Positions 47,818-63,889 of a DNA stretch of 64,000 nucleotides are shown here, piece by piece; positions within the stretch are counted from its first letter, which is position 1; each line of letters starts with the position of its first letter. The stretch is from Candidatus Poribacteria bacterium. Its GTDB lineage: Bacteria; Poribacteria; WGA-4E; WGA-3G. Both the position numbers and the translations under genes were made by a program. Location: positions 256,001 to 320,000 of the forward strand of contig CBDBFU010000020.1 of the NCBI GenBank assembly GCA_965205025.1, given 5' to 3'. A model generated the notes under the pieces. It did not search any database and had not been told where the DNA came from. It saw only the letters and a program-made list of their open reading frames with translations.

Positions 47818-49296
47818 CTATTCATTGTATTCAGAACGGTCTGTGTTTCCACCATATTTCAAAGTATATATCATAAGATTTGTCATGAATCGATATACAT
47901 CTGTAGACCGTCGTAATCGCAATGCTGTTCTGGATTCTATTTCTGCGGTCTCCATTGCACAAAGATAATCTTTTCTGTTGAATACTACACCGAGTCTATT
48001 GGTTGTTTTAAGGGTACCTTGAGAGTCCTTATATGTTAGGTTAGGTTGTTTTCTTCCACCCAGTGAGCGAGGGACATATATACCCCAATGGAATTTGAAT
48101 TTTGATGGTTGAGGTACATTTTCATTCTCCCAGAATCTGTCACCCCCTTCTGGTGGTTTTTTTAGATTATAGTAAATTCTATATATTTCGTGCTCAAATG
48201 GCAATTTCTCTAATGGATATTCTGGAAATATTAAACGTAATTCCTCTCTTATAAGATTTGCGAAACTTGCTTTAAACCCACAATCATCAAAAAATAGTGT
48301 ACCACCTCTATCAAGGACATATTTTCTGAGTGCAACGCGTTCTTCATCAGAGAACCCAGTAGTCATTTTCTGACCATCCCGCATCAGTTTACGGTTAATG
48401 GTCATATTTCGATCGTGTCCAGTCATTATAATCAGTGGTGCATCCAGAATGTTTTGATCTGTTAATGGTAATGCTCCACCAGCAAAGTTCATGTCGGCGC
48501 GTATAGTAGTGTTTTCCTGTAGCCATTTTATGAGAGACGGAATTGCTGTTGGATCCTGCCACCAATCACTTAGAGAATGCTTTAGTCTGATGATCCGTAT
48601 ATGAGCTTTAATATCTGAACCTGTCCCCTTAATGATACCTCCCAATTTCTGTCCTATTTCATCTTTCAGGGTAGGTAGTCTTCCAAAACCTTCACCTAAA
48701 TCAACATAACCTGAACCTGTACCAGTTCCTTTTGTAAAGTTTCCAAATCCAGAACCCTCATTTCCACGTATTGTTAGACCTGAAGCACCACCCCCTCCTT
48801 TACCACTTGCAGTTTTCATACCATCCTCCACACCATCGGTACCAGTAGACAATGAAGGTCCGTCAATTTTCGGTTGATTTAAGATTGATTGTGGTGAAGG
48901 GGCAAGTCGAGTAACATTTTCTATTAACGAGGGTGCATCGAGAGTTGTTTCTCCATCTACAGGCGTTCCAGGTTTTATGGCTATTGGATTTCGTGTTGAA
49001 CTTGAAATACCTTTAACACCAGATGTTAATACTTTCCGTTCTACCTTTATTTCAGGCTTGGGTCTGGGTTTAGGTATATCTTTTCTCGTTCTATTCTCTG
49101 GTAGTGAATCTATAAGTTCTGCGTATATCTGATTTTCTGGTGGTTGAATGACTGGTTTTAAGAGGTGTATCGCAAAGATTATTAATGCAATTACATGTAA
49201 ACCAATAGAAATCAAAAACGCATAACTTCGATTACGCTTTTTTCTGTATGTTTTATATATTTCAGAATTCATATCTATGCCTTGATGGATTATCAA
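47818..49296 (-). CDS. Membrane-anchored protein with Pro/Gly-rich linker and DUF4159-like C-terminal domain
   Basis: TM with SIGLH; DWWQDP, MTGH, LRKYVLDRGGTLFFDDC, HEIY motifs. Confidence 0.65.
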   Translation of the reverse strand: MIIHQGIDMNSEIYKTYRKKRNRSYAFLISIGLHVIALIIFAIHLLKPVIQPPENQIYAELIDSLPENRTRKDIPKPRPKPEIKVERKVLTSGVKGISSSTRNPIAIKPGTPVDGETTLDAPSLIENVTRLAPSPQSILNQPKIDGPSLSTGTDGVEDGMKTASGKGGGGASGLTIRGNEGSGFGNFTKGTGTGSGYVDLGEGFGRLPTLKDEIGQKLGGIIKGTGSDIKAHIRIIRLKHSLSDWWQDPTAIPSLIKWLQENTTIRADMNFAGGALPLTDQNILDAPLIIMTGHDRNMTINRKLMRDGQKMTTGFSDEERVALRKYVLDRGGTLFFDDCGFKASFANLIREELRLIFPEYPLEKLPFEHEIYRIYYNLKKPPEGGDRFWENENVPQPSKFKFHWGIYVPRSLGGRKQPNLTYKDSQGTLKTTNRLGVVFNRKDYLCAMETAEIESRTALRLRRSTDVYRFMTNLMIYTLKYGGNTDRSEYNE

Positions 49297-49342
49297 ATGT
49301 ATAGTGAATTATAACAATTTTGTGGTCATCGGTGCAATAAAA

Positions 49343-49485
49343 ACGTCAAATATCCCATGAAGATTAATTTTTAAATTCGGTATTTTTGGAGAAATATCCA
49401 GTGCGGTTAGGAAACCGCACCTACCGGGTTTGGGAAAAAAAGAATTACCGAACTATTTACTTAATCTTCATATGACATTTGACGT
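49343..49485. mobile_element. Nested inverted-repeat element (family C) enclosing a GTAG-REP hairpin
   Basis: acgtcaaat/atttgacgt, atgaagattaa/ttaatcttcat and ttcggta/taccgaa pairs nested around gtgcggttaggaaaccgcacctac (49401-49424). Confidence 0.7.
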
Positions 49486-49513
49486 GAGATCCTATCTTGG
49501 TTGTATTTTCTGA

Positions 49514-50068
49514 TTAGAGAATTGAAAGAGCATCTTCATAACAACCATAGGTAGCATCATCAAACAGTATAAATTGAATAATAGTAGGTATGTTATTATT
49601 GCCTTCAGCTAATTCCAGAATTGTTTGCAGCGCTACCTTAGCTGCTTTTTCTGTGGGATATCCATATACTCCTGTACTTATTGATGGAAAAGCAATAGAG
49701 TCTATACCATTCTCAGAGGCTAAGAGTAGACTTTCTCTATAGCAACTTGATAATAGTTTCGGTTCATTCTTATTTCCACCATCCCACACAGGACCGGCAG
49801 TATGGATGATGTGATTTGCTGGAAGGTTACCACCGGTTGTGATAACTGCTGTCCCTGTTGGACATCCTCCTTGTGCTGCTCTAATCTTATCACATTCTTT
49901 TACGACTTCTTCACCACCAGCACGTCGTATTGCACCATCTACACCTCCACCTCCGATGAGTTCTTTGTTAGCAGCGTTTACGATTGCATCTACATTTGCT
50001 TTTGTAATATCTCCTTGAATAAGTTCTACTTGTATATCTACAAACTGTTTCTTCATTCTTTTCTCCAT
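49514..50068 (-). CDS. Macrodomain protein (O-acetyl-ADP-ribose deacetylase, YmdB-like)
   Basis: GDIT..DAIVNAAN..GGGGVDGAI, IHTAGP, AFPSISTGVYGYP. Confidence 0.92.
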   Translation of the reverse strand: MEKRMKKQFVDIQVELIQGDITKANVDAIVNAANKELIGGGGVDGAIRRAGGEEVVKECDKIRAAQGGCPTGTAVITTGGNLPANHIIHTAGPVWDGGNKNEPKLLSSCYRESLLLASENGIDSIAFPSISTGVYGYPTEKAAKVALQTILELAEGNNNIPTIIQFILFDDATYGCYEDALSIL

Positions 50069-50081
50069 TCTGTATGTAATT

Positions 50082-50227
50082 TAACGTGAGTTTGATAAGA
50101 CACATTGTACCCCGAACTTTTAGTTAACACCAGAGTGCACAAACTGGAATGTTTGTGCTACAAAGACTATCTTCAGGACAAAATTCTGTTTATCGAACTG
50201 ATATTTTTCATTATCAAACTGGCGTTA
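50082..50227 (-). mobile_element. 146-bp MITE family B, copy 3
   Basis: Near-identical to 46225-46370. Confidence 0.88.
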
Positions 50228-50229
50228 AT

Positions 50230-51108
50230 TTAGTTTTTATTTTCAAGTACACCTATACGTTGCAAATCATCTAAGATAACTGATTCAATTCCCATCTCAG
50301 TGGATAAATTTATGTAATTTATTCCTTTCTGTTTACAGAAACTTTGTAGTGTACTACGAAAAGTATTCATCTCTCCACGGAAGTGTTGTAGTGTTTCATC
50401 ATTGATGGTAATCTCTTTTGTTTCACCTGTTTCAGAATCCTCCAATTGCCATTCACCTTGTGGAAGAAGTTCTATCTCCTCTGAACTTTGGATGTGTATC
50501 AATGAAACCGTGTAACTTCGTCCTAATAGAGAATTAATACCTTCTCTGTATCCATTAGAATCTAAAAAATCACTCAGTATTACGACTACACCTACTTTTG
50601 GTTGATAAACAGATAGATGAGTAAAACATTCAGTAAGATGTGTTGTCCCTTCTGGTTCAATTGGAAAAAGTGCTTTCTCAATTCGAGTATAGTGTGATTT
50701 TCCATAAGTGGATGGTAATACGGAAGATAGTCGATCTGATAATGTATAGAGAGAGATTCGATCTGTATTAGCTAATGTGATATAACCCAAAGCAGTAGCA
50801 ATCTGTTTTGCATATTCTAACTTTGAAGGTTCACCAAAGGACATGGATTGACTTGTATCAATGAGGATGGAAACAGATAATTCCTCGTCTGCTTGAAATA
50901 ACTTGATAAAAGGTTTTTCTAAGCGAGCATAGACATTCCAGTCGAGATACCGTAGGTCATCTCCAGGTTCATAACGTCTATAATCGGTAAATTCCAGACC
51001 TGTTCCCCGATTTTGACTTCGCCTTTCTCCCCTATATTTCCCGCGAAACGGTTTATGAGATTTAAATCGGAGTTGGTCAAGTTTATTAAGGAAATTGGAA
51101 CTTAGCAT
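50230..51108 (-). CDS. DUF58/VWA-associated protein
   Basis: GLEFTDYRRYEPGDDLRYLDWNVYAR, IDTSQSM, ILSDFL. Confidence 0.88.
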   Translation of the reverse strand: MLSSNFLNKLDQLRFKSHKPFRGKYRGERRSQNRGTGLEFTDYRRYEPGDDLRYLDWNVYARLEKPFIKLFQADEELSVSILIDTSQSMSFGEPSKLEYAKQIATALGYITLANTDRISLYTLSDRLSSVLPSTYGKSHYTRIEKALFPIEPEGTTHLTECFTHLSVYQPKVGVVVILSDFLDSNGYREGINSLLGRSYTVSLIHIQSSEEIELLPQGEWQLEDSETGETKEITINDETLQHFRGEMNTFRSTLQSFCKQKGINYINLSTEMGIESVILDDLQRIGVLENKN

Positions 51109-51116
51109 AAGATTGC

Positions 51117-53261
51117 CTACTTCAATATCAACATCTTACGGGTTGCAGTAAAATCTCCAGCTATGAGTGTGTAGAAATATACTCCACTGGCAACAGACTC
51201 ACCAAGTCTGTTTTTTCCATTCCAATGGGCTGCTCGGTCTGGTGAAATGTATTTTCCTGAAACTCTCATACCTAATTCCAGAGTCTGAAGAAGTGTACCT
51301 GATGAAGAATGTATAGTTATAGTAACATCAGCTGGTGAAGCCAATTGGTATGGAATCCAAGTTTCAGGATTGAATGGGTTAGGATAGTTAGGTAGGAGTG
51401 CCGTTTTCAAGATTACTTTTTCTGCTTTCTTAATTGAGTTAAGAATAATTAGTAGATTTTCCAGATTTGTAATACCCTCCCGATACTCATCTGATCCATC
51501 GTAACCTTCCCAAGCCATAGTAATCCATTCCTGAATCAATGTTGGGGAGAGTGCTTCCTGTGAATCTATATCCGCTTGTAAGTTAACCTGATTGGAAACA
51601 ATGATCAAGTCTCTAATATCAACCATTCGGTCCCCATTAAGATCCTCATTTGTAAGCCCCTCCTTGTAAAAATCAAATGATTGGACAACTTGCAACATAT
51701 CAAGAATACTGACTCTTCCGTCCCCATTTACATCTGCAGGATTTCTTTGTTTTTCACCATCACTTAGGTCTGGAAGAAGTGTATCATATTCAGTACCGGA
51801 TTCAAGGCCGAAGAAACCTGACCACCATCCTCTACCTTCGTATACCGCAACCAATAAGAAGTTTATCCCTTTGTTAAGAGTTAAAGGAAATGCATCTTGA
51901 TAATCTTCTGCATCTCTATCAACAGCTTTATTATGTATCAATTTACCGTTTAACCATATCTTCACTGCGTCCCCACTACCAACATACATGGTTGTTGATT
52001 GTTGAGCAGGGGAATTGATAATAATTGATCCATAAGCAACATGGTGATTAATATCATCAGTACCAAGTCCAATTTCGTTAGCGAGTTCATTGATGTTATT
52101 CCCACCTGATTTAGATAATCGACCTTCCTTCCATTCTTTTTTACCTACTTTTTCCGACTTAACGGCACCACGAGTAGCAACAATTTCTTCAGTTATAGTT
52201 CCAGCACTAACTTTAGAAAGATAATCGGTTCCCGATGAGGCAGCATCTGATCCAGATAAACCATCAGTAGGAACTATCACCCATAACCAAGGTCCACTGA
52301 TTTTTGGGGCATTGGGAGTAAATCCAGGATTATTAACCTGATTGATAAAGACTCCTCTTCTCTTAAGTGGATCTAAGGGTGCAAAATCCACAATTTCATT
52401 ATCTTCAAGAATTAAAAATGTTAGATTTGTCAAATTGACAAGCGGCTTTACGTCCGTTACTTCATTTTGTCTTAAATCCAAACGTCTAAGATTGATCAAA
52501 CTTGCTATAGGTTCTATATTGGATATATCATTATTTACAAGATATAACTCCTTTAAAGCAGTTAATCCCTGTATAGGAGATAGATCTGTTAATTCCCCAC
52601 CACAAATATCTATTCTCTCCAATTTAGGTAGTTCTGACAATGCCCCAAGGTTTCTTATTGGTGTACCCCATGAAGAGAATCTCGTAAGACTAATTAATCC
52701 GGATAAAGGTGTTAAATCTCCTAATGGATTTTCTGTGATTGCGACATGGGTTAACCGAATTAGATCCGAAAGAGGCGTTAAATCGGTTAATGCATTGTGT
52801 GAGAGATTTATATCTATAAGATTAAATAAACCTTTTAGTGGTGTAAGATCTGAAATTAGATTATCATCAAGTACAAGAATCTCTAAACTAATTAGGTCTT
52901 TAAGGGGTGTAAGGTCAGATATCCTGTTATTAGTCAACCTTAATCTACTTAGTTTTTTCAGATCGGTAATTGGAGTTAGATCAAAGATTGAATTGTTATG
53001 AAGATTTAGTTCAACGAGATTAGTTGCAAATTCCAATCCAACTATTTCTTCTATCTCTGCATTTCTAACATCAAGCAGAGATAATCTCAGCATTTCTTGA
53101 GCAGTAATTACCGTACCAGATGGCTTGGACAGATATTTTTCAATAGCTTCACGTAAGTTATCATCAGGAATATCAATTATTTGTGCAGATAAACCTGAAG
53201 AAATCAGTAAACAAAATACAAAAATTATGTATGAGAATATGATTTTTTTGTTCTGTAGCAT
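51117..53261 (-). CDS. Secreted internalin-like LRR + beta-sandwich + dockerin + FlgD-Ig-like C-terminal domain protein
   Basis: Signal peptide; LxLxxNxIxDLxPL repeats; DVNGDGRVSILD/DLNGDRMVDIRD pair; NYPNPFNPETWIPY..ATRKMLILK. Confidence 0.85.
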   Translation of the reverse strand: MLQNKKIIFSYIIFVFCLLISSGLSAQIIDIPDDNLREAIEKYLSKPSGTVITAQEMLRLSLLDVRNAEIEEIVGLEFATNLVELNLHNNSIFDLTPITDLKKLSRLRLTNNRISDLTPLKDLISLEILVLDDNLISDLTPLKGLFNLIDINLSHNALTDLTPLSDLIRLTHVAITENPLGDLTPLSGLISLTRFSSWGTPIRNLGALSELPKLERIDICGGELTDLSPIQGLTALKELYLVNNDISNIEPIASLINLRRLDLRQNEVTDVKPLVNLTNLTFLILEDNEIVDFAPLDPLKRRGVFINQVNNPGFTPNAPKISGPWLWVIVPTDGLSGSDAASSGTDYLSKVSAGTITEEIVATRGAVKSEKVGKKEWKEGRLSKSGGNNINELANEIGLGTDDINHHVAYGSIIINSPAQQSTTMYVGSGDAVKIWLNGKLIHNKAVDRDAEDYQDAFPLTLNKGINFLLVAVYEGRGWWSGFFGLESGTEYDTLLPDLSDGEKQRNPADVNGDGRVSILDMLQVVQSFDFYKEGLTNEDLNGDRMVDIRDLIIVSNQVNLQADIDSQEALSPTLIQEWITMAWEGYDGSDEYREGITNLENLLIILNSIKKAEKVILKTALLPNYPNPFNPETWIPYQLASPADVTITIHSSSGTLLQTLELGMRVSGKYISPDRAAHWNGKNRLGESVASGVYFYTLIAGDFTATRKMLILK

Positions 53262-53307
53262 GAATACTTCCTATTAAAGGTGTTGGGTAAACCAAAGTAT
53301 ATTAGTG

Positions 53308-56300
53308 TTATTTCATTAAATACATTTTACGGGTAGCCGTGAAGTTCCCTGCAGAAATTGTATAAAAATATACTCCACTTGCTACAATTTCACCAATTTC
53401 ATTCTTACCATCCCAATATGCAGCCCGACTACGACTCTTATAGAGACCAGCAGACTGATTACCTAATGCCAGTGTTCGAACTTTCGTTCCGTATGCACTA
53501 TAAATTGTCAGAACGACCTGTGTAGATTCTGAAAGTTGGTATGGAATCCATGTTTCAGGATTGAATGGATTAGGATATGCTGGAAGTAGTGCAGTTTGTT
53601 CTGGTACTACAACTAATTCTAACAAGAGGTTCAGTTTTTGAAGTCCTTGTTTAAAAACTGTTGATCCATCATCAGCTGCTTCTGCTTCATAGATCCACTT
53701 CTTGATTATTTCAGTTGTCAATTTATAAGGATCTGATGTCAGTAAAGCAGGTGCAGATGTTACTGATTCACCCAATGATTGTGCTACCATCACTAAATCA
53801 ATTATATCTATACTCCCATCATTATTCACATCAGCGTCTGGATTATCTGCCACATCGTCTCCAATTGATTGTGCAACCATTACTATATCCCTTATATCAA
53901 CCTCTCCATCCTTATTAATATCAGTTGGAAGATACGTGGAATCATCACCCATCACAAGGACAAGATATTCGGGTGCTACATTTGGCAAAGGATTTCCATG
54001 ACTTGAACCTACTTCAAAATCTTCAAGAGTGATTAGACTTTCACCAGGACCAATTACTGAAAAGACTATGGAACATAATGTGCCTTTTCCATTAACACTT
54101 TCTTCTGAAATGAGAATTGAATTTATATTTTTGACTTTTCCAATTTCATTATCTATAGTTCCACTATGAAACCGTGTAGTATCTTCTTCTGATTTTAGGA
54201 AATTGCCTTCATTCACTTCATCTACCTGTAGCACCTCTGAATTATAAATGAGATCTCCTTGCCATCCTGCCAAGTTTTTCGCATTTTCCACTATCAAATT
54301 GAGGGTAAAGGAATCTCCTATCTCGAAATTTGTAGTATCAGTATCAAATAAGAATCTAAGGTTAGGTTTAAATACTTTATATTTTGCGTCAGTTGCAAAT
54401 CCAAAATTACCGCCAAAACTACCATGTCCATGATTATCAATTGCGACTAATAATGCGTTTTTTCCTTGTATTAAAGTTACAGGAAAAACAGCATCGTAAT
54501 TTCCAGCACCCCGTGTGATAAATGCCTTATGTACCAATTCTCCGTTAAGCCAAACTTTGACGGAATCATTGCTTCCAACAAACATCTGAGTTTTTTGTTC
54601 AGTTGGAGAATCCAATATAGTAGCCCCGTAAACAATATGGTCATATATCTCACTTCCTGTACCCCAACCGAGTGATTCTGTCATTTCATTTATATTGTCT
54701 CCACTGGTAGAGATATTCGACCAGGTCCAAACACTATCTCCAACAGGTTTCCCGGCTGTTGCACCATTTGTAGACACCTTAATTTCAGTAGCAGCCCCAC
54801 CCGTTGCACGTGCCAGAAAATCAGTTATATCATCAAGACGTGTTCCTGGAACAATTGCCCATAACCAAGGTCCTGTAATTTGTGGTCCACCAATTGGAAA
54901 AGCAGGATTGCCAGATGTACGGACGAATGTGTTATCAGAAAATGCTTCTATAACCGAAAAATCTTTAATGGCATTATTGCGTACATCCAATCTATTTAGG
55001 TTAGTTAACCCACTGAGAGAGGATATATCTGTAATAATATTATTTTCAAGATATAAGACTTCTAATTTCTTCAGTTCAGCGAGTGGCGTTACGTCTGTAA
55101 TGAGATTTGCATCCAGATTTAGTATTGTTAAATTCTTTAGATTACTCAGAGGTCTCAAATCTTTGATATTATTATTAATTAACTCTAACCACTCCAGTTG
55201 GGTGAATTCTGAGAGAGTTGTCAGATCAGAAAAACTACATCCGTGAATTTCTAAACGGGTTAATGACTTTAGTCCCTTAAGAGTTGGGAGTTTTGTAATC
55301 CGTTTATCATTACCATATTCAACCCAATTCAAGCTTGGTAATGATTTTAAAGAGGAAAAATCGGAGATTGGTGTCTGCCATGCATCAATTCTATTTAAGC
55401 TTGTTAAGTTTGCGAGTGGTGAAATGTCCTCAATTGGGTTTCCAGAAATACCGATACCTTCTAATTTAACTAATCCTGATAGTGGTGTTAGATCAGTAAT
55501 CTGGTTACCTTCAAGACCTAACCAATCAACATTCGTTAAGTTCGCTAATGGAGTAACATCAGTAATATTATTTCCACGCAATTTAATGTTATTCAAACGA
55601 GTTAATTCAGTGAGAGGAGATAGATCAGAAATGGAGTTGTTTCTGAATTCTATTCGTTCTAAGTTTTTTGCATATTCAAGACCTGTTAGATAGATAATTT
55701 CTTTGTTATCAGCATCAATACGTGTAATTCGTTTCATCTCTTCCTTGGTAATTCTTGCACCGAATGGTTTATCAAGAATTTCCTCAATTACAGCTCGGAG
55801 GTTCAGATCAGGAATATAGACGATAGGATCATCAGGATCAGGTATGGGATCAGGTATAGGATCAGGTATAGGATCAAGATCTGGATACAGTCCATCTACG
55901 ACGTCTGGAAATACTGAAGTCCATGTATCCCTTTTTATTCTTTGATTTCCAGTGGCAAGTGTACCGACAATATTTTTTAAGTCTTGATTATTCTCAATTT
56001 TATCTAAGAACACAGGTGTTTCTAATCCTACCGAAGCTGCGGCGTATTTTACATCGAGTGATCTATAAAAGTTAGTATGGAATCTTTGTATTGGTTCGTT
56101 CTCAAGGTTATCAAGGAATCGTGTTTTTAATTGCTCATTTTCAAATGGTCCACCAATACTAATTAATGCCTGTTGAAATTTTTGTGTGTCTTGTTCAAGC
56201 AGATTATTTAGAACTGCTTGTTCTGGGTATAATCGTAATGCTTGAGCTTTGTCATATATAGGATTTTCGGCATTTTCAATTACAGCCCGTACTTCATCTT

Positions 56301-57552
56301 CAAATTTTCTCATTCCCTCTGTATGACATCCGATACAGGAGAGTCCATTTCGAACAGCTGGATCATCAGCAAGAGGATTTGATACGATATCTGTAGGTGC
56401 TACATCAAGACGGTTTCCAACAGCATCAACGAGGAAATACGCCTGTAACCCATTCGGTAAATTGAAGATTATTTCTCCGCCATCATGTTTAAATGATATA
56501 GGATGTTGGAAGATGTTCTGTACTCCGGAACTTCCGGCAAAATCGTAACTTTTCCAATATGCTCCATATTGAGATTTATGCCGTTCAACAACGCGATTGT
56601 GGTTCGATACTCCAGAGTCATTGAATCCTGCACGCCAGACGGAAACTCCCGGTGAGGTTTGGATATTTTCAGCCACATCAATATCAAGTACGTCCTCCAA
56701 TTCACGATCAGTCTGGGGTAATCCTAAAATGTCGTTATATAATGGAGGTAATGATGCTGTAGCAAGAAACCAATCCACATATATATAGGGTATTTGACAA
56801 TTCATATCATTTCGTAGATTTGTAATTTTATCCAACAGTTCTGTTTGTGTTTCTGGATTAAAATTAATAGTATATGGATAGACTGATTCAAGCTGTGACC
56901 ACCGATTCGGATCATCCTGCCACTTATAATGTCGTAGATCAATATAATAAACAGTATTGTCCGAATCAATTGGTGTTGGATTGATGATATCTACTTCCCA
57001 TGAAAGACTGTTTACTAATTTAGAAAGAGCAATTTGATAGTCATATAGTGTCTGATTGTTTTCACCTGAGTTATAGAGATGGGTTAATGTAAAATATCGT
57101 GCATAGGGACGGTCAAACGAGTCTAGTGAATTTAAGTGTTGTTGTATGATATCAAGCATTTGTTCAATGGAGATGAAATTTTTATCTTCAGAGTGGTTCC
57201 AATCAGGTGCTCCTGCAAGAATCCATTGACGAATAGTCTCAATGTCTTTTGTGGGTAACGGTTCACCACCCTGTGGCATAAGTAAATTACTTTCCTTAGG
57301 TACAATTAGTCGTTTGTATAGTTCTGATTCATTAGGATTATTAGGGATAACCGTCATTGTTTCAATGAGGTTGTTGTATTCAATCAATAAATTATCCTTA
57401 TATGGACCTTCTTCCCCATGACAAACCGAACAATTTTGTTCTAAAATAGTGTATGCATCTTGTGCAAGACTCAGTTGTGCTTTAGAATGCTGACAAGTTG
57501 AAAAAACAAAATAAAGACAAATTAAAATTATATTATATTTCCGTATTTGCAT
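53308..57552 (-). CDS. Large secreted protein: cytochrome c region (two CxxCH) + LRR + beta-sandwich + cohesin + dockerin + FlgD-Ig-like CTD
   Basis: CSVCH (Planctomycete cytochrome-c-like, ..MP..IRQWI) and CIGCH; PDPI linker; LRRs; cohesin-like LAGWQGDL..EGNFL..GTIDN; two DxNxDG motifs; YPNPFNPETWIPY. Confidence 0.82.
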   Translation of the reverse strand: MQIRKYNIILICLYFVFSTCQHSKAQLSLAQDAYTILEQNCSVCHGEEGPYKDNLLIEYNNLIETMTVIPNNPNESELYKRLIVPKESNLLMPQGGEPLPTKDIETIRQWILAGAPDWNHSEDKNFISIEQMLDIIQQHLNSLDSFDRPYARYFTLTHLYNSGENNQTLYDYQIALSKLVNSLSWEVDIINPTPIDSDNTVYYIDLRHYKWQDDPNRWSQLESVYPYTINFNPETQTELLDKITNLRNDMNCQIPYIYVDWFLATASLPPLYNDILGLPQTDRELEDVLDIDVAENIQTSPGVSVWRAGFNDSGVSNHNRVVERHKSQYGAYWKSYDFAGSSGVQNIFQHPISFKHDGGEIIFNLPNGLQAYFLVDAVGNRLDVAPTDIVSNPLADDPAVRNGLSCIGCHTEGMRKFEDEVRAVIENAENPIYDKAQALRLYPEQAVLNNLLEQDTQKFQQALISIGGPFENEQLKTRFLDNLENEPIQRFHTNFYRSLDVKYAAASVGLETPVFLDKIENNQDLKNIVGTLATGNQRIKRDTWTSVFPDVVDGLYPDLDPIPDPIPDPIPDPDDPIVYIPDLNLRAVIEEILDKPFGARITKEEMKRITRIDADNKEIIYLTGLEYAKNLERIEFRNNSISDLSPLTELTRLNNIKLRGNNITDVTPLANLTNVDWLGLEGNQITDLTPLSGLVKLEGIGISGNPIEDISPLANLTSLNRIDAWQTPISDFSSLKSLPSLNWVEYGNDKRITKLPTLKGLKSLTRLEIHGCSFSDLTTLSEFTQLEWLELINNNIKDLRPLSNLKNLTILNLDANLITDVTPLAELKKLEVLYLENNIITDISSLSGLTNLNRLDVRNNAIKDFSVIEAFSDNTFVRTSGNPAFPIGGPQITGPWLWAIVPGTRLDDITDFLARATGGAATEIKVSTNGATAGKPVGDSVWTWSNISTSGDNINEMTESLGWGTGSEIYDHIVYGATILDSPTEQKTQMFVGSNDSVKVWLNGELVHKAFITRGAGNYDAVFPVTLIQGKNALLVAIDNHGHGSFGGNFGFATDAKYKVFKPNLRFLFDTDTTNFEIGDSFTLNLIVENAKNLAGWQGDLIYNSEVLQVDEVNEGNFLKSEEDTTRFHSGTIDNEIGKVKNINSILISEESVNGKGTLCSIVFSVIGPGESLITLEDFEVGSSHGNPLPNVAPEYLVLVMGDDSTYLPTDINKDGEVDIRDIVMVAQSIGDDVADNPDADVNNDGSIDIIDLVMVAQSLGESVTSAPALLTSDPYKLTTEIIKKWIYEAEAADDGSTVFKQGLQKLNLLLELVVVPEQTALLPAYPNPFNPETWIPYQLSESTQVVLTIYSAYGTKVRTLALGNQSAGLYKSRSRAAYWDGKNEIGEIVASGVYFYTISAGNFTATRKMYLMK

Positions 57553-57619
57553 GTTAACTCCTAATATATTTTTATTTATGTAATTGAGATCAGAAATTCA
57601 TATTTCATATTAGCACTTT

Positions 57620-59650
57620 TCATTTAATAATTAACATCTTTCTTGTAGCAGAATAATTATCTGTAGTTAACGTGTAGTAATATATTCCACTTGAAACTCT
57701 TTCACCATAAGAGTTTTTCCCGTTCCAATAAGCTGCTTGTGTAGGACTTGTATAGAACCCCGCATCTTTATAGCCTAATTCAAGTGTGCGTATTATCATT
57801 CCGCCTGTATTATATATAGTTATTGTTACCTCTGTAGGTTTCCCAAGATGGAATGGGATCCATGTTTCGGGATTAAATGGGTTTGGATAGTTATTGAGTA
57901 ATATTGTATTTGCAGGATTTAAAGATGTAAGTAATTCTTGTAGTTTTGCAATACCCTTTAGAAAGGAGATTGAACCATCATTAATAGTTTGTGCCTTTGC
58001 TATCCATGTATTGATCATTAAAGACATTAATTCTTTAGTTGATGTCTTTTTTGAGTATATAATATTAGAGGGAGCGACTGTTGTATCATCGATATTTTGT
58101 GCAATAGCAATAATGTCTAAGATACCGATTGTACCATCCTTATTAATATCTGACTCTGGACTAACAGATGCATTCTCTCTTAAATATTGTGCAACATGTA
58201 ACAAATCTAATATATTCACTTTTCCATCCTGATTTACATCCCATAGACTGTATTCACGGTTCTCTATTGTGATTTTTAGATTTGGAAAATTAAGTGGAAT
58301 ACCTGCAAGGATGTTTGAACCAGCCTGTAAACTTGTTAACTTTATTTCTGTTTCTCCAATTTTAATTGCAGTAAATTTTATAGACAATAACCTTCCTGTA
58401 CCGGAAACACCACCATCTGAAAATCTTGCAGCACCAAGTTTTATAATCTTACCTGTTATGTTATCAACACTATAATCTAGAAAGTAAGATCTCCCACCAT
58501 CATCTTTTAGGAAATTACCCTCAATTACTTCATCAACTGTCAGATATTCAGGATCATACACCATGTCACATAACCATCCTGACAGATCAATGACATTTTC
58601 TATATTTAGATGTAACAAGAAGGTATCATGAATTTGTATTGGTTGATTATCTATGCTAAATGAAAGAGACGGTATATTTCCATTAATAGTGGATTGTTTC
58701 TCAACGGTGATGGAAATCTCAGGTAGAATCAATTGAACTGGTTCTAAATCGCTTGTAGTTGCTTTAAAATTGAGGATTTGTATTTGTGAATTCCCAATTG
58801 CCTTAGCCGTAAACATCACTGAAAATAAGTTTCCTGTACCGCTTACGCCACTACTGGAAAGTGTTGCAATTATTTTAGTAATATTGCCTATATTATTATC
58901 AATAATACCTCCTTGAAAGAAGGGAGAATTTCCTCCCTTTTTTAAGAAATCCCCTAAAACCACCTGATTAGCTTCAAGTATATTAGGATCGAATGATAAT
59001 TCACTTTGCCATCCAAATAAATCTGTAGCATCATCTATATTGATATTTAGTGTAAACTGATCACCTTCTATAATAGGAACATCATCAATCGTGTAAGATA
59101 ATTGAGGGTCATTACTTTCGTCTGGCAATTTTTCTTCTATAGTAATGACAATCTCAGGAGGAGTTATGGATATAACATCTAAATTGCTATTAGTTCCTTT
59201 AACATTTTCAATTTGTATCTGAGTTTCACCGTTTTCTATTACAGTAAAAACAACTGAAAACAATCTACCAGTGCCATTAACTCCTACAGTTGAGAGTGCT
59301 CCAAGAAGTTTAGTAATTTCACCTGCTTCATTATCAATTTTACCACTCTGAAAGAAAGGTATTTCCCCACCTTGTTTCAAGAAATCGCCTCCAATGACTT
59401 CTACGGCTTCAAGTATTTCTGGATCAAACAGGATCTTACATTGCCAACCTGATAAGTCATCGACATCTTCAATGTTGATGTGAAGCGTAAAATTTTCACC
59501 AATTTGAAGATTTGCTTCATCCAAAGAGTACGAAAGTTTCGTTGATTCAGTTTGAGCATCAATTGATAGAGGATATATTAACAAGAAAAATAGATAAATA
59601 GGTATTGTGGTAATTATTATCAACTTAGTATTCACTATATATTTTAACAA
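57620..59650 (-). CDS. Secreted scaffoldin-like protein: three cohesin-like repeats + dockerin + FlgD-Ig-like CTD
   Basis: Three ~145-aa repeats (FTLxINI..DLxGW..FDPxxL..GxFLKxGG..IDNxxGxI..GVxGTGxL..F); DVNQDGKVNILD/DINKDGTIGILD; NYPNPFNPETWIPF. Confidence 0.82.
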   Translation of the reverse strand: MLKYIVNTKLIIITTIPIYLFFLLIYPLSIDAQTESTKLSYSLDEANLQIGENFTLHINIEDVDDLSGWQCKILFDPEILEAVEVIGGDFLKQGGEIPFFQSGKIDNEAGEITKLLGALSTVGVNGTGRLFSVVFTVIENGETQIQIENVKGTNSNLDVISITPPEIVITIEEKLPDESNDPQLSYTIDDVPIIEGDQFTLNINIDDATDLFGWQSELSFDPNILEANQVVLGDFLKKGGNSPFFQGGIIDNNIGNITKIIATLSSSGVSGTGNLFSVMFTAKAIGNSQIQILNFKATTSDLEPVQLILPEISITVEKQSTINGNIPSLSFSIDNQPIQIHDTFLLHLNIENVIDLSGWLCDMVYDPEYLTVDEVIEGNFLKDDGGRSYFLDYSVDNITGKIIKLGAARFSDGGVSGTGRLLSIKFTAIKIGETEIKLTSLQAGSNILAGIPLNFPNLKITIENREYSLWDVNQDGKVNILDLLHVAQYLRENASVSPESDINKDGTIGILDIIAIAQNIDDTTVAPSNIIYSKKTSTKELMSLMINTWIAKAQTINDGSISFLKGIAKLQELLTSLNPANTILLNNYPNPFNPETWIPFHLGKPTEVTITIYNTGGMIIRTLELGYKDAGFYTSPTQAAYWNGKNSYGERVSSGIYYYTLTTDNYSATRKMLIIK

Positions 59651-59840
59651 CCTTTATTGAGAAAATTAATTGGTAGTGTTATGGTATGGAATGTCAGATT
59701 TCTCCATCTCTCAATCCATCTATATGAGACCATAACAACTGTTCTATTATGTCTTCTATATTCTATCACTTTTATTCAATTGTCCATAGAATTATTTGTA
59801 TCGCAATATCGCACGCCAATCAGAAAATTAAAAATAGGAT

Positions 59841-61148
59841 TTAAACCTCGTTACGGACGTCTATTTTACCGGTCACTGCTTCTGAGATAAGGGATTGTCG
59901 GTATTCTTTGAGGAGTTCAACTTTCTGTTGTTCTGCTAATACCAGTTCGTCAATTTGTTTTATTCTTTGGTCAAGTATGTTTGCGATTTGTTCTTGTTCA
60001 GATAACGGGGGATACGGAACAATCATATCCTTGAAATCTTCGAATCTTAATTCCCATTGTCCTGTTCTAATTCCATAAGACAACCTTTTATACTCCTGAA
60101 TATATGAATTAGACCTTAATAAATAATGGAAGTATTTTCCAAAGAAAGATTTCTTAGGTTTGCAAACAGTATAAGCCGGACTAACAATTCCTCTATATTC
60201 AGAGATTCCCAATGAACCTTGCCAACATTTCATTTTATTAAACACAAAATCCCCTGGTTCAACAAGCTTATAATTTGATGTATCTTCAGATATTCTGTTG
60301 TGATTATCGTCTCTACTATCTCTCCTAATGACACCATAATCTCTGTAAACTGATAAATTGATTTCCCCAGTAGTATTCTTTATATGCTTTAATTCAAACA
60401 GATTCGTACACCTAATTGTAATCCAATGCTTTGGTAAATCTCCAATCCATTCCACTCCCGATGGTTTCATCTCTACATGGGGGTCAAGTCCTTTTGTCAC
60501 TGCATAATTTATGAGTGCTGTGCGTTGTTCTTGTAGGAGTTCTATCTTTCGTTCTTTGATGCGTATGATTTCGTCAATTTGTTCTGTTTTTTGGTCAAGG
60601 AAGTTGGCGATTTGGGTTTGTTCTTGGTAAACCGGTATGGGAATCTGAAAATTCTCAACAAATTCAGTCGGTACTCGTTTAAGACCAACTGCGCTGGTCA
60701 TAAAATGTTTGCCAATACTACGAAGTGGATCACTGCGTAAAATATAATACAAAAAAGGGGGAAATACCCGTTGCAGATCAGGACGAATGACAATAAATTC
60801 AGTCGAGCCAAACCCAACTGAGGTCGCCAAATTCTTTATGCGTACAATCTTTCCATTTTCAAAACACGGAGTTACTTTTGCTATAAGAATATCACCTTCC
60901 TCAAAGTAAGTGTAACCATTTTTCAGTTGAGAATAAGGTGACCTTAATTCTTGGTCAATCGTCCCATCAGTCTGAACCCTTTCCATTGGAAGAAATACTA
61001 CAGGTTCATCATTAAGATGAGTGGTTTTGGAATTAGTCTTAGAAGGATTACTGGAACCTACTTGTTTAACTTTTAGAACTTTCCAGTGATTCGGGATCTC
61101 TCCAATCCAATCCACACCGCTGTCTTTATATTCAGGGTAACTTTTCAT
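59841..61148 (-). CDS. hsdS: Type I restriction-modification specificity subunit, with no adjacent hsdM/hsdR
   Basis: YKDSGVDWIGEIP.HW and SGVEWIGDLP.HW repeats, two TRDs, PPLSEQEQIA, LISEAVTGKIDV. Confidence 0.92.
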   Translation of the reverse strand: MKSYPEYKDSGVDWIGEIPNHWKVLKVKQVGSSNPSKTNSKTTHLNDEPVVFLPMERVQTDGTIDQELRSPYSQLKNGYTYFEEGDILIAKVTPCFENGKIVRIKNLATSVGFGSTEFIVIRPDLQRVFPPFLYYILRSDPLRSIGKHFMTSAVGLKRVPTEFVENFQIPIPVYQEQTQIANFLDQKTEQIDEIIRIKERKIELLQEQRTALINYAVTKGLDPHVEMKPSGVEWIGDLPKHWITIRCTNLFELKHIKNTTGEINLSVYRDYGVIRRDSRDDNHNRISEDTSNYKLVEPGDFVFNKMKCWQGSLGISEYRGIVSPAYTVCKPKKSFFGKYFHYLLRSNSYIQEYKRLSYGIRTGQWELRFEDFKDMIVPYPPLSEQEQIANILDQRIKQIDELVLAEQQKVELLKEYRQSLISEAVTGKIDVRNEV

Positions 61149-62905: not shown

Positions 62906-63889
62906 TTATTCAATAAGTGAGACTTTTTCAAGTACCTCTGCAATTTGAGAAATACGTACCATGCCCCCATTAAGGTTGTTGTCATCCATCAGTTTTCTTA
63001 ATGGTTCATCAAAATAGCCATTTGCATACGGGGACATTGCGACAGTCTTTATTAATGTTCCTAAATTGACATTTATGTTGAGTCCTTCTTTAGGGATGTC
63101 TTTCAATATGTTAGTTTTTCCGGCATTGAATAATGAAAAGTCATATTCAAATAGTTTATCATTATAAAAAGGAATATCTGAAGTGTAAATTCGATCTAAG
63201 TATTTATTACATATAGAATCGAATGAAATTACAGCGCGGACTTCGTGTTCGTCGGCATATACATCTCTTTTATGTATAATAGGTGCGTAAAATAAATTAA
63301 GGACGTTTTCAGGTTTGTTTAAGTCTATTGCCGTAAAGTCCTCATAACCTTCAATATGTTCATTTTCATAATCTTTATATTTTACTGTACCTATATGTAT
63401 GTCGTATTCGGTCAATTCAAAACTATTGATGAGATCGCCGACAGTAGTTTGAATTGCTATTGATGTTGGACTTTTATCCCCATATTCTGCCCACATAGAA
63501 TGACTTTCATTATCACTTAGAAACCAGCAATTGCAAAACATTAGGTGTTTTGAAAATTTTGTTAGTAGTGTATCAAATGAATGAATAAGAGATAACATTT
63601 GTTTTTTCTCGAGTCCATCTGGATATTCTTCCATATCTTCCTTTCTTCTTCGGAAAACATCATCTTGTTCTATAGGTGTATTTTTATCATTTAATAAACT
63701 TGTTTTATAGACTTCTGTTCTGGACTTATCTGATAGTTCACCTTCATATTTGTCATTAAATACAGTAATTTTCGGAAAATAAATTAAGTGTGTTTTGAGC
63801 ATTGACATGAATTTATCTATATGCATATATCTCCATAAAATTTCTGTATTGGATGGAGTATCAAAGTAGGGACTTTCTTGGTAGGGCAT
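62906..63889 (-). CDS. DUF2971-like hypothetical protein
   Basis: LWRYM..KF, CNCWF..ESHSMW.EY, KR..Y.DE.EVR motifs. Confidence 0.6.
   Translation of the reverse strand: MPYQESPYFDTPSNTEILWRYMHIDKFMSMLKTHLIYFPKITVFNDKYEGELSDKSRTEVYKTSLLNDKNTPIEQDDVFRRRKEDMEEYPDGLEKKQMLSLIHSFDTLLTKFSKHLMFCNCWFLSDNESHSMWAEYGDKSPTSIAIQTTVGDLINSFELTEYDIHIGTVKYKDYENEHIEGYEDFTAIDLNKPENVLNLFYAPIIHKRDVYADEHEVRAVISFDSICNKYLDRIYTSDIPFYNDKLFEYDFSLFNAGKTNILKDIPKEGLNINVNLGTLIKTVAMSPYANGYFDEPLRKLMDDNNLNGGMVRISQIAEVLEKVSLIE

Follow-up and report, generated by a model that had tools for sequence, protein, structure and literature searches.

A conserved gene trio in Poribacteria encoding cohesin-dockerin proteins with binding modules, a possible adhesion system

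The three genes and their modules

The window analysed here is a stretch of 64,000 nucleotides from a Candidatus Poribacteria genome. It contains three co-oriented genes on the minus strand, A, B and C, separated by 67 nt (A-B) and 46 nt (B-C), and a DUF58/VWA-like gene that is possibly co-transcribed with C. The features are as follows (all on the minus strand).

57620..59650, minus: gene A, scaffoldin-like, 676 aa; signal-like N-terminus, three cohesins, dockerin, helical hairpin, T9SS-type tail
59138..59545, minus: A cohesin 1, aa 36-171; best Pfam Cohesin stretch 42-156, internal repeat
58703..59110, minus: A cohesin 2, aa 181-316; Pfam and internal repeat, 53% identical to cohesin 1
58265..58675, minus: A cohesin 3, aa 326-462; internal repeat, 45% identical to cohesin 1
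58076..58258, minus: A dockerin, aa 465-525, two Ca-loop/helix repeats; Pfam Dockerin_1 471-519
57899..58027, minus: A helical hairpin, aa 542-584, W..A...DGS..G..L..LL; homology to helices in the B model
57623..57895, minus: A T9SS type A / FlgD-Ig-like C-terminal domain, aa 586-676; Pfam, NCBIfam
53308..57552, minus: gene B, 1414 aa; two-haem head, LRR, jelly-roll sandwich, cohesin, dockerin, hairpin, tail
55843..57552, minus: B N-terminal two-haem module, aa 1-570; AF2 pLDDT 93.3, pTM 0.88
57418..57432, minus: haem motif 1, CSVCH, aa 41-45; at least 90% conserved in 58 sequences
56323..56337, minus: haem motif 2, CIGCH, aa 406-410; C406, C409 and H410 invariant in 58 sequences
54883..55827, minus: B LRR array, aa about 576-890, internalin-like 22-residue repeats; LRR_4 (Pfam) E 2.6e-35
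54358..54885, minus: B jelly-roll sandwich, aa 890-1065; no Pfam family over cut-off
53953..54363, minus: B cohesin, aa 1064-1200; Pfam 28.9 bits, AF2 and Foldseek matches to solved cohesins
53758..53940, minus: B dockerin, aa 1205-1265; Pfam, Ca-loop pattern, AF2 model
53587..53718, minus: B helical hairpin, aa 1279-1322; two helices in the AF2 model
53311..53583, minus: B T9SS-type C-terminal domain, aa 1324-1414; Pfam, NCBIfam, AF2 model
51117..53261, minus: gene C, 714 aa; LRR, sandwich, dockerin, hairpin, tail
52326..53177, minus: C LRR array, aa about 29-312; LRR_4 (Pfam) E 1.4e-26
51747..52325, minus: C jelly-roll sandwich, aa 313-505; 42% identical to the B sandwich
51570..51752, minus: C dockerin, aa 504-564; Pfam, Ca-loop pattern
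51423..51545, minus: C helical hairpin, aa 573-613; sequence alignment
51120..51392, minus: C T9SS-type C-terminal domain, aa 624-714; Pfam, NCBIfam
50230..51108, minus: DUF58/VWA-like gene, 8 nt downstream of C; Pfam DUF58 E 5e-43

An earlier note, made from the sequence of the window, had described three closely spaced genes for secreted proteins, with three cohesin-like repeats and a dockerin in A, two CxxCH motifs in B, the same beta-sandwich in B and C, and a common helical segment and tail. All of these features are present. Pfam finds Cohesin in A with an E-value of 8.5e-21 (75 bits); it gives two cohesin stretches, and the third is visible as an internal repeat. The sandwiches of B (890-1065) and C (319-499) align with an E-value of 1e-41, and the helical segment and the YPNPFNPETWIP tail can be aligned across all three proteins. 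The note had also proposed a search with three Pfam models: Cohesin is found in A and B, Dockerin_1 in A, B and C (33.8, 32.3 and 35.6 bits), and FlgD_ig in A and B (30.4 and 30.9 bits), with C under the cut-off of 27 (23.5 bits). The T9SS type A tail model TIGR04183 is over its cut-off of 23 in all three (29.8, 30.6 and 28.1 bits). Each dockerin shows the duplicated pattern of two DxNxDG Ca loops, each followed by a helix; the second loop of C has R in place of the usual G. When the AF2 model of the B cohesin is compared with solved structures, solved cohesins top the Foldseek list with a TM of up to 0.76 on the target (4u3s_A, E 4e-10; the non-cellulosomal cohesin 2xdh of Archaeoglobus fulgidus, target TM 0.74), and going by this model the domain is a true cohesin fold, as the note had supposed.

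The head of B is laid out as a class I cytochrome c (about 28-118, with M92 and P93 invariant in the 58 sequences), a beta-rich haem domain (about 273-451) and a helical C-terminal part. The first haem domain resembles FoxE both by profile (E 3.2e-10) and by structure (Z of 8.3, with an rmsd of 2.8 over 87 residues). The likeness of residues 273-451 to cytochrome c'-beta/P460 chains is weak, as its Z of 4.4-6.5 lies under 8, the level where chance structural arrangements become unlikely. No Pfam model covers the module of roughly 530 aa, and the whole module has no match among solved structures (Foldseek, best E 0.39). The nearest Atlas clusters (scores 0.96-0.98) consist of stand-alone PSCyt1 proteins about 590-626 aa long, of the "cytochrome c domain-containing" type known from Planctomycetota and Myxococcota. 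On the basis of the model we are confident that the head is a new-looking fold, predicted to combine a class I cytochrome c with a weakly P460/c'-beta-like haem domain.

The LRR array and the sandwich are the best-conserved parts of B among orthologues, with 67-76% identity, compared with 52-60% for the head, cohesin and dockerin. Internalin models are the top NCBIfam matches of the LRRs in B and C, and the 22-residue repeats share the LxxLxLxxNxIxD pattern of Listeria internalins. However, with scores of 160 (B, internalin_A) and 139 bits, far under the cut-off of 1600, the LRR proteins are not internalins. Their LRRs are followed by the jelly-roll sandwich instead of the internalin inter-repeat domain.

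Conservation and census

Order and strand of A, B and C are kept in all seven same-genus loci examined, which were picked by an A-like match, even where the flanking genes differ, which supports reading the three as a unit. The DUF58/VWA-like gene is no constant partner: it lies downstream of C in four of the seven, and the downstream DUF58/Macro genes are absent in three. The cohesin classes A1, A2, A3 and B and the dockerin classes A, B and C are each conserved among orthologues.

The genome itself has 16 Cohesin matches (16-17) and 49 Dockerin_1 matches (about 49) in 50 ORFs, a dockerin to cohesin ratio of about 3 to 1. The Pfam survey of the cargo, which the earlier note had recommended, covered 46 of the 50 dockerin/cohesin ORFs and the three window ORFs; the recognised cargo comprises LRR, WD40, cadherin, VWA, solute-binding, thioredoxin and M23 modules. 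The note had recognised no glycoside hydrolase, and we likewise found no glycoside hydrolase or CBM family in A, B and C at E <= 0.01. None was found at E <= 1e-4 in the 46 other ORFs together with A, B and C, nor any PL or CE family. Across the phylum, Cohesin-region and Dockerin_1 matches occur in all 81 sampled genomes and in two of 14 control genomes.

These observations are best summarised by the proposal that A, B and C are a conserved Poribacteria operon of a phylum-wide cohesin-dockerin system in which binding modules replace carbohydrate-active enzymes, a reading to which we give roughly an even chance.

Co-variation and competing readings

In 125 sequences of the B family, 19 of the 3010 cohesin-dockerin column pairs co-vary with Z>4. 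The count is zero for sandwich-cohesin, sandwich-dockerin, cohesin-hairpin, cohesin-tail, dockerin-hairpin and dockerin-tail pairs. The distance matrices of cohesin and dockerin are correlated with r = 0.82 (partial 0.70), while the next best domain pair reaches 0.62 (partial 0.25). Co-variation and co-divergence within the family thus point to a self-matched dyad, and they favour a matched, self-recognising pair in B rather than simple docking of neighbours. The earlier note had drawn a branched complex of different proteins; this detail does not fit well, because the co-variation argues against the simple picture in which the B cohesin is a socket for the plug of a neighbour. On the other hand, the signal could also arise if cohesin and dockerin were swapped jointly as one recombination block.

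The same co-variation and co-divergence would also suit an intramolecular clasp, that is, a dockerin that folds back on the cohesin of its own chain as a stabilising or auto-inhibiting lock, with no assembly between proteins and with A as an Ig-like stalk. Moreover, cohesin and dockerin in one chain are always directly adjacent (envelopes 0-5 aa apart, with the first Ca loop about 10-14 aa away). We nevertheless regard the clasp as unlikely. A carries three cohesins and a single dockerin. About 35 proteins besides C carry a dockerin and no cohesin, and two carry a cohesin and no dockerin, so that most modules have no possible partner in their own chain. For B 1060-1414 the AF2 model, with a pTM of 0.45, gives no confident arrangement of the dockerin against the cohesin, and the same layout in Amy4 of Ruminococcus bromii was read as multimerisation (Ze 2015, PMC4611034).

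Perhaps there is no socket and plug at all: the dockerin would be a Ca-binding spacer of the C-terminal sorting cassette, the cohesins an Ig-like stalk and the proteins single adhesins. The dockerin stands at a fixed 55-70 aa ahead of the tail in 34 of 49 ORFs and could therefore be part of a sorting or stalk cassette, not a plug. The excess of dockerins over cohesins points the same way, and partnerless non-cellulosomal dockerin-like modules are reportedly common. However, thirteen ORFs have a dockerin without any tail; in six of them, which encode solute-binding, thioredoxin or monooxygenase-like proteins, it comes directly after the signal peptide. In addition, the dockerin shows co-variation with the cohesin but none at Z>4 with hairpin or tail, and a mere stalk would hardly account for a conserved, cargo-free protein with several cohesins such as A. 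We consider this reading quite improbable.

It is less probable still, and to us very doubtful, that the locus encodes an extracellular redox machine, in which the two-haem head does the work (electron transfer with a mineral or host substrate, as in FoxE) and the LRRs and the cohesin-dockerin pair only position it. The match of the first haem domain to the iron oxidase FoxE, the conservation of both CxxCH motifs and the presence of haem maturation genes (three Cytochrom_C_asm genes for haem attachment) agree with it. But the haems are on B only, they lie far apart in the modelled 530-aa domain, which would make a poor wire, and B has six paralogues per genome with differing LRR arms. The B-type head is also widespread and often fused to kinases. 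Among 40 proteins examined outside Poribacteria it is joined to Ser/Thr kinases (4), FHA (2), WD40 (8), TPR (7) and FGE-sulfatase (5) domains, a range of partners that marks a module for sensing or binding rather than an electron conduit. This agrees with the heme redox or sensor unit suggested in the earlier note, the function being predicted from the fusion partners.

Finally, a true polysaccharide-degrading complex whose enzymes escape current profiles is extremely improbable: the sandwich has a weak BetaGal_ABD2-like match (E 0.005; 18 bits, under the cut-off of 23) and about 800 aa of one dockerin ORF (C11:77822-80890) belong to no recognised family, but no solved enzyme matches that ORF, the recognised cargo is binding modules, and GH, PL, CE and CBM families are absent from the survey described above.

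Known systems and a possible assembly

With clostridial and ruminococcal cellulosomes the Poribacteria system shares cohesins, type I-like dockerins and the excess of dockerins, and A resembles the adaptor scaffoldins, cargo-free proteins with several cohesins and a dockerin of their own. The differences are the lack of glycoside hydrolases and CBMs, the Gram-negative-type phylum, the usual placement of cohesin and dockerin side by side in one chain, and a T9SS-type tail on every subunit, whereas cellulosomes are anchored through SLH or sortase by few proteins. In Amy4 likewise, cohesin and dockerin share one polypeptide, the cohesin binds its own dockerin and multimers have been proposed; another R. 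bromii dockerin protein, CBL14720.1, carries LRRs and binds cohesins (both Ze 2015, PMC4611034). However, Amy4 is the amylase of a Firmicute, the Poribacteria operon has no enzyme, and self-recognition of B would follow from co-variation only. The fold is also known outside cellulose degradation: 2xdh of A. fulgidus and 2jh2, 2vo8 and 2w1n of Clostridium perfringens are among the Foldseek matches of the B cohesin. These come from other lineages, neither with a T9SS tail or haem head, and the C. perfringens toxin-complex cohesins sit on glycoside hydrolases.

Poribacterial LRR, WD40 and cadherin proteins with TIGR04183 (Por-type) tails have already been published (Kamke 2014, PMC3909097); the main text of that paper has no occurrence of cohesin or dockerin, and its authors report having found no Por structural genes. 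Our genome has 56 TIGR04183 tails and, in contrast to that report, three PorU-like and three PorV-like ORFs, and a SprA-like ORF (roughly 2160-2217 aa) is single-copy in five of five complete same-genus genomes, all of these T9SS-core matches being under curated cut-offs. No match to GldM was found in a search whose control was also silent. The earlier claim of an undescribed system therefore holds in part: public data contain a very large number of proteins of this family, and both the tails (PMC3909097) and LRR dockerins (PMC4611034) are in print, but we found no literature linking Poribacteria with dockerins.

For the preferred reading of an operon in which binding modules replace enzymes, we infer binding, location and function from the modules. 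A, B and C would be exported by Sec through their signal-like N-termini, and the two c-type haems would be attached to B in the periplasm. The folded proteins may then reach the cell surface by a divergent T9SS-like route that recognises the C-terminal domain; since solute-binding and thioredoxin proteins have a dockerin and no tail, part of the system may be periplasmic. At the surface, Ca-dependent cohesin-dockerin pairing would build multivalent arrays. Through its dyad, B most likely pairs with its own type and so forms chains or dimers in the manner of Amy4, and the three cohesins of A would supply further sockets. The head of B may serve as a redox or small-ligand sensing or binding unit, and the displayed arms, LRRs with a lectin-like jelly roll, would attach with high avidity to a conserved ligand of a host or particle. 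Judged by their sequences, the products of A, B and C thus look like a self-assembling adhesion layer made of binding modules without enzymes.

Gene layout, modules and conservation

The locus consists of three co-oriented ORFs on the minus strand, with a gap of 67 nt between A and B and of 46 nt between B and C:

57620-59650, minus strand: gene A, 676 aa; three cohesins, dockerin, two-helix hairpin and C-terminal tail
53308-57552, minus strand: gene B, 1414 aa; haem head (residues 1-570), leucine-rich repeats (LRR), jelly-roll sandwich, cohesin, dockerin, hairpin and tail
51117-53261, minus strand: gene C, 714 aa; LRR, sandwich, dockerin, hairpin and tail

Searches of Pfam and NCBIfam returned Cohesin (75 bits), Dockerin_1 (33.8 bits) and a FlgD_ig/TIGR04183 tail for A; LRR_4 (E 2.6e-35), Cohesin (28.9 bits), Dockerin_1 (32.3 bits) and the tail for B; and LRR_4 (E 1.4e-26), Dockerin_1 (35.6 bits) and the tail for C. 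The cohesins of A and B and all three dockerins lie above the Pfam cut-offs, which are 24.1 bits for Cohesin (PF00963) and 22.9 bits for Dockerin_1 (PF00404). The features named in the earlier note are all present, and every module that it named is confirmed by Pfam and NCBIfam.

The cohesin repeats of A span residues 36-171, 181-316 and 326-462. Repeats 2 and 3 are 53% and 45% identical to repeat 1, and the three share 34-41% identity with the cohesin of B. We could rule out that they are chance Ig-like repeats, given the Pfam score of A and the three or four copies in the orthologues, which score 136-186 bits against an HMM made from the copies in the window. Each of the three dockerins has two tandem calcium-binding loops (DxNxDGxxxxxD) with a helix after each, as read from the sequence and, for B, with two helices in the structural model. 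Loop 2 of the C dockerin, DLNGDRMVDIRD, has R where G is usual. In all three proteins the C-terminal order is the same, namely the dockerin, the hairpin (W..A...DGS..G..L..LL) and the YPNPFNPETWIP tail. The N-termini, judged by eye from the sequence, are hydrophobic and signal-like.

We compared seven loci from genomes of the same genus, those with the best A-like matches on long contigs. In all seven, the gene order is A-like (683-824 aa), B-like (1398-1408 aa) and C-like (705-715 aa), with the three genes on one strand; as the loci were chosen by their A-like match, this count says that A implies B and C, not how frequent the triad is among genomes. The A-like genes encode three cohesins, and four in one case. 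The DUF58 gene starts 8 nt downstream of C, and DUF58 and Macro genes are found downstream in four of the seven related loci and are absent from the other three, so that the triad stays together while its flanks change. A-B-C is a unit.

Several details of the surroundings can be added. The four-cohesin protein (824 aa) belongs to one relative (L045, G029:C27), and in another (L043, G070:C1) a 620-aa gene bearing a tail is inserted between B and C. In the window, C is followed on its own strand by DUF58, Macro-domain and DUF4159 genes (47818-51108). Directly upstream of A there is a type I restriction-modification specificity subunit (Methylase_S, 59841-61148) and, further on, a DUF2971 protein (62906-63889). 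A gene 2.2 kb past the window end (L021, C20:322174-324405) encodes a WD40 protein of 743 aa that also has a cohesin, a dockerin, the hairpin and the tail; the operon therefore sits among further members of the system. At two other places in the genome (L009, C13:157291-169883, and L019, C20:37164-44346), B-like paralogues again have as neighbour a protein that shares the sandwich and has a dockerin but no cohesin. These neighbours are a C-like protein of 721 aa and a protein of 401 aa made up of sandwich, dockerin and tail; a B-like paralogue with two cohesins is also present.

A scan of 49000-60500 was uninformative: promoter-like sites numbered 46 (48.2 expected) and terminator-like sites 5 (6.0 expected). 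Two sequencing runs from a single study contain the complete stretch and may be its source. Other runs, with sponge, coral or marine labels, contain small shares of it (0.09-0.29), and none of the listed runs with the stretch is RNA.

Cohesin-dockerin pairing and the binding arms

The AF2 model of B 1060-1414 (pLDDT 79.6) shows, in four parts, a beta-sandwich, the two helices of the dockerin, the hairpin helices and, at the C-terminus, another beta-sandwich. Its single domains are good, and its pTM of 0.45 speaks neither for nor against docking in cis. The cohesin blocks have a pLDDT of 85-97 and form a nine-stranded cohesin-type beta-sandwich. When this B cohesin model was compared with solved structures using Foldseek, the top matches were all cohesins (probability 1.00, target TM 0.60-0.76; 4u3s_A with E 4e-10), among them the non-cellulosomal cohesin 2xdh of A. 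fulgidus and cohesins of C. perfringens. For B, the module thus has the true cohesin fold on which the first reading of this DNA depended.

Next, we looked at which modules vary together, using APC-corrected mutual information in 125 B-family sequences (effective number 71). Between cohesin and dockerin, 19 of 3010 column pairs had Z>4. The hairpin and the tail gave 3 such pairs, and in the same 125 sequences there was none for sandwich-cohesin, sandwich-dockerin, cohesin-hairpin, cohesin-tail, dockerin-hairpin or dockerin-tail. The distance matrices of cohesin and dockerin are correlated with r = 0.82, and with r = 0.70 after regressing out the other three domains; for the next-best domain pair the values are 0.62 and, after the same regression, 0.25. 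Since all of these domains sit in one chain, shared descent alone does not explain the contrast between domain pairs. As the co-variation indicates, cohesin and dockerin of the B family either co-evolve as partners or are swapped together as a block, and the adjacent pair is a matched dyad either way.

In proteins with both modules, the dyad is probably self-matched. This agrees with Amy4 of R. bromii, whose cohesin binds its own dockerin, with multimerisation thought to follow, according to the accessible part of Ze 2015 (PMC4611034); for B, self-recognition is suggested by the co-variation. On the other hand, A has three cohesins against its single dockerin, and most of the proteins that bear a dockerin lack a cohesin, so docking in trans may occur beside the matched dyad. 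Against the branched complex proposed in the earlier note, the co-variation within one chain points to a self-matched dyad. A complex prediction for cohesin 1 of A (33-row alignment) and the dockerin of C (24 rows) with two calcium ions scored 0.09 and 0.12 against a mark of 0.32, which speaks neither for nor against binding.

The arms of B and C share a domain of about 180 aa, the sandwich, at B 890-1065 and C 319-499 (42% identity, E 1e-41). We were not able to find any family above its cut-off for this domain. The label "lectin-like" is only a lead and not a result, because the BetaGal_ABD2 match is sub-threshold (E 0.005, 18 bits vs 23) and the Atlas clusters are unnamed. The LRRs are not those of an internalin, as the NCBIfam models InlA/InlH gave 160 and 139 bits against a cut-off of 1600. 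Among orthologues of B, identity is highest in the LRR (67-70%) and the sandwich (71-76%), and amounts to 54-59% in the head, 52-60% in the cohesin and 54-59% in the dockerin. Across the paralogous B family, in contrast, no domain diverges more than the sandwich (mean p-distance 0.53). Being best kept among orthologues (sandwich and LRR) and most divergent among paralogues (sandwich), these domains suggest that each B paralogue seems to keep its own ligand.

The haem head of B

The head has the motifs CSVCH at residue 41 and CIGCH at residue 406. Across 58 aligned head sequences there is no variation at C406, C409, H410, M92 or P93, and conservation is at least 90% at C41, C44 and H45. The AF2 model of the head is very confident (pLDDT 93.3, pTM 0.88). 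A Foldseek search of solved structures gave no match at E <= 0.001 (best E 0.39), and a search of their sequences returned only chance-level rows (best E 0.037).

With an exhaustive structural aligner, residues 28-118 match class I cytochromes c, for example FoxE (Z 8.3, rmsd 2.8 over 87 residues). The profile of the 58 relatives also matches FoxE (E 3.2e-10) and Kuenenia c-552 (E 1.8e-7), in the first haem domain only. This domain has the CxxCH motif, the distal Met and the fold of a class I cytochrome c. In the second haem domain, strands at 305-382 precede CIGCH (406-410), and Foldseek found no match. Cytochromes c'-beta/P460 take five of the eight best structural rows for residues ~273-451; with Z 4.4-6.5, these could still be chance matches. 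The only cytochrome family matched by B in Pfam is Cytochrome_CBB3 (17.4 bits vs a cut-off of 27); a B paralogue on C13 reaches 23.7 bits for PSCyt1 (cut-off 22). Three Cytochrom_C_asm genes are present in the genome.

A search of 1.84 billion representatives gave 5203 relatives of the head at E <= 1e-3, 2787 at <= 1e-10 and 1492 at <= 1e-30. The closest clusters in the Atlas consist of free-standing PSCyt1 proteins, about 590-626 aa long, from Planctomycetota and Myxococcota. In 40 relatives that were scanned, the head is fused to WD40 (8), TPR (7), FGE-sulfatase (5), an N-terminal Ser/Thr kinase (4) and FHA (2), and further to VWA, EGF, DnaJ and TPM; 23 of these 40 have a PSCyt1 entry. A position after kinase and FHA domains is the pattern expected of an extracytoplasmic sensor or binding module. 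Since the head is often the extracytoplasmic part of kinases, we regard this two-haem head of ~530 aa as a candidate new sensor domain. The family (5203 representatives at E <= 1e-3) is without a Pfam model and without a solved relative.

A word search with the first 570 residues of B gave 3960 matches at E <= 1e-3 among 8000 scored. The best 120 of these are 57-62% identical to the query, and all except four (P0019, P0062, P0088, P0111) have LRR, Cohesin and Dockerin families. The names among these 120 are only "hypothetical" or [quoted passage not shown].

Elsewhere in the genome there are two proteins of ~540 aa with an N-terminal dockerin and Cu2_monoox_C (L006 and L013:4-1614; C11:106465-108084 and C15:160765-162378). 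Their residues ~155-211 resemble B 68-122, in the first cytochrome domain (42-47% identity, E 3e-6).

Cargo, export and relation to the cellulosome

In the genome that contains the window (5.66 Mb, 33 contigs, 95% complete), 50 ORFs account for 16 Cohesin and 49 Dockerin_1 matches. We searched 46 of the genome ORFs and the three window ORFs against Pfam, leaving out one 56-aa fragment. The cargo includes LRR proteins, with five further B paralogues (52-57% identity in the head), and WD40 propellers, with eight tandem paralogues at C14:291581-311963. Other cargo comprises a cadherin with LTD, VWA, the solute-binding families Peripla_BP_6 and SBP_bac_5, thioredoxin, Cu2_monoox_C, M23 peptidase and Big_1/LDL-receptor repeats. 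The eight tandem genes (L011, L012) encode ~830-850 aa each, with WD40 propellers followed by a dockerin and a T9SS-type tail. The layouts of the 49 ORFs were sorted with HMMs from the window's own modules.

Table. Layouts of the 49 cohesin/dockerin ORFs
Dockerin, with the tail 55-70 aa later: 34 ORFs
Dockerin just behind the signal peptide, without tail: 6 ORFs
N-terminal cohesin-dockerin ahead of the cargo, without tail: 4 ORFs
C-terminal dockerin, without tail: 3 ORFs
Cohesin and tail, without dockerin: 2 ORFs

An N-terminal dockerin, alone or together with a cohesin, occurs without a T9SS tail in solute-binding proteins (SBP_bac_5, Peripla_BP_6) and a thioredoxin (L016, L028, L004:7739-9682, L015:4-1989, L023). 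Such tail-less proteins hint at a role for part of the system in the periplasm or on lipoproteins.

Across the phylum, Cohesin-region and Dockerin_1 matches were found in all 81 sampled genomes, with 3-68 dockerin matches each and tens in most; as a control, 2 of 14 well-known genomes had matches.

The TIGR04183 tail scores 29.8 (A), 30.6 (B) and 28.1 bits (C) against a cut-off of 23 and ends at the last residues of each protein; the genome has 56 matches to it. There are three PorU-like ORFs of ~1740-2180 aa (best 300 bits vs 420), three PorV-like ORFs (at most 95 bits vs 250) and an SprA-like fragment at a contig end. All five complete genomes of the same genus have one ORF of ~2160-2217 aa with colinear partial SprA matches, all <200 bits. 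Note that the PorU-, PorV- and SprA-like matches are all below the curated cut-offs. A GldM search of the genome gave no match, and the control was silent as well. These matches suggest that a divergent T9SS-like route exports the tail-bearing proteins. The accessible text of Kamke et al. 2014 (PMC3909097) describes tails on poribacterial repeat proteins, and Por structural genes were not found in its single-cell genomes. One PorU-like (T9SS sortase) ORF of 2178 aa lies ~14 kb past the window end (C20:333539-339238; 288 and 71 bits), the other two at C32:130548-136106 and C2:157856-162223.

We can reject the identity with a cellulosome, as the defining enzyme cargo was looked for and is absent. 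With Pfam, no glycoside hydrolase, other CAZyme or CBM was detected in A, B or C, nor at E <= 1e-4 in the 46 further cohesin/dockerin ORFs. One ORF, C11:77822-80890, has ~800 aa without a family and gave no match to a solved enzyme. The likeness to a cellulosome lies in A, a multi-cohesin scaffoldin-type protein; however, A has no substrate-targeting CBM and no SLH or sortase anchoring, and bears a T9SS-type tail instead. By analogy, the system may work like a cellulosome, as a plug-and-socket surface display with binding arms and the haem head as cargo. The observation in the earlier note is right, and its interpretation partly right.

A far more specific proposal, which we consider improbable, is an "adhesosome". 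Poribacteria would here have converted the modules of the cellulosome into a calcium-dependent, enzyme-free surface lattice. Dozens of eukaryote-like binding proteins (LRR, WD40, cadherin) would be joined in it through self-matched dyads and an adaptor with three sockets. One class would carry the new two-haem head, whose P460/c'-beta-like five-coordinate haem would sense NO, O2 or redox state and so tune the attachment to host or particles to the chemistry of the surroundings.

Dockerin proteins with LRRs have been described from R. bromii and R. flavefaciens, according to the accessible part of Ze 2015 (PMC4611034). Cohesin and dockerin are absent from the accessible main text of Kamke 2014. 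A literature search for both "Poribacteria" and "dockerin", in searchable text with supplements beyond its reach, found only an unrelated salt-lake preprint. What this locus contributes is a conserved unit of three genes that includes an adaptor with three cohesins, a complete inventory of the cargo in one genome, T9SS-like parts and a structural reading of the head.

To our knowledge, cohesin-dockerin pairing is understood almost entirely as the means by which Gram-positive anaerobes organise enzymes that degrade polysaccharides; non-cellulosomal cohesins and dockerins are reportedly widespread. Eukaryote-like LRR, WD40 and cadherin proteins have long been suspected in the contact between sponges and their symbionts. 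Judging from the genomes, cohesin and dockerin appear to be a standard fitting of the surface-protein repertoire across an uncultured phylum, on such eukaryote-like proteins. If the modules bind, they would offer a set of orthogonal protein connectors from a new lineage, and a concrete, testable mechanism for the display and multivalency of eukaryote-like proteins.
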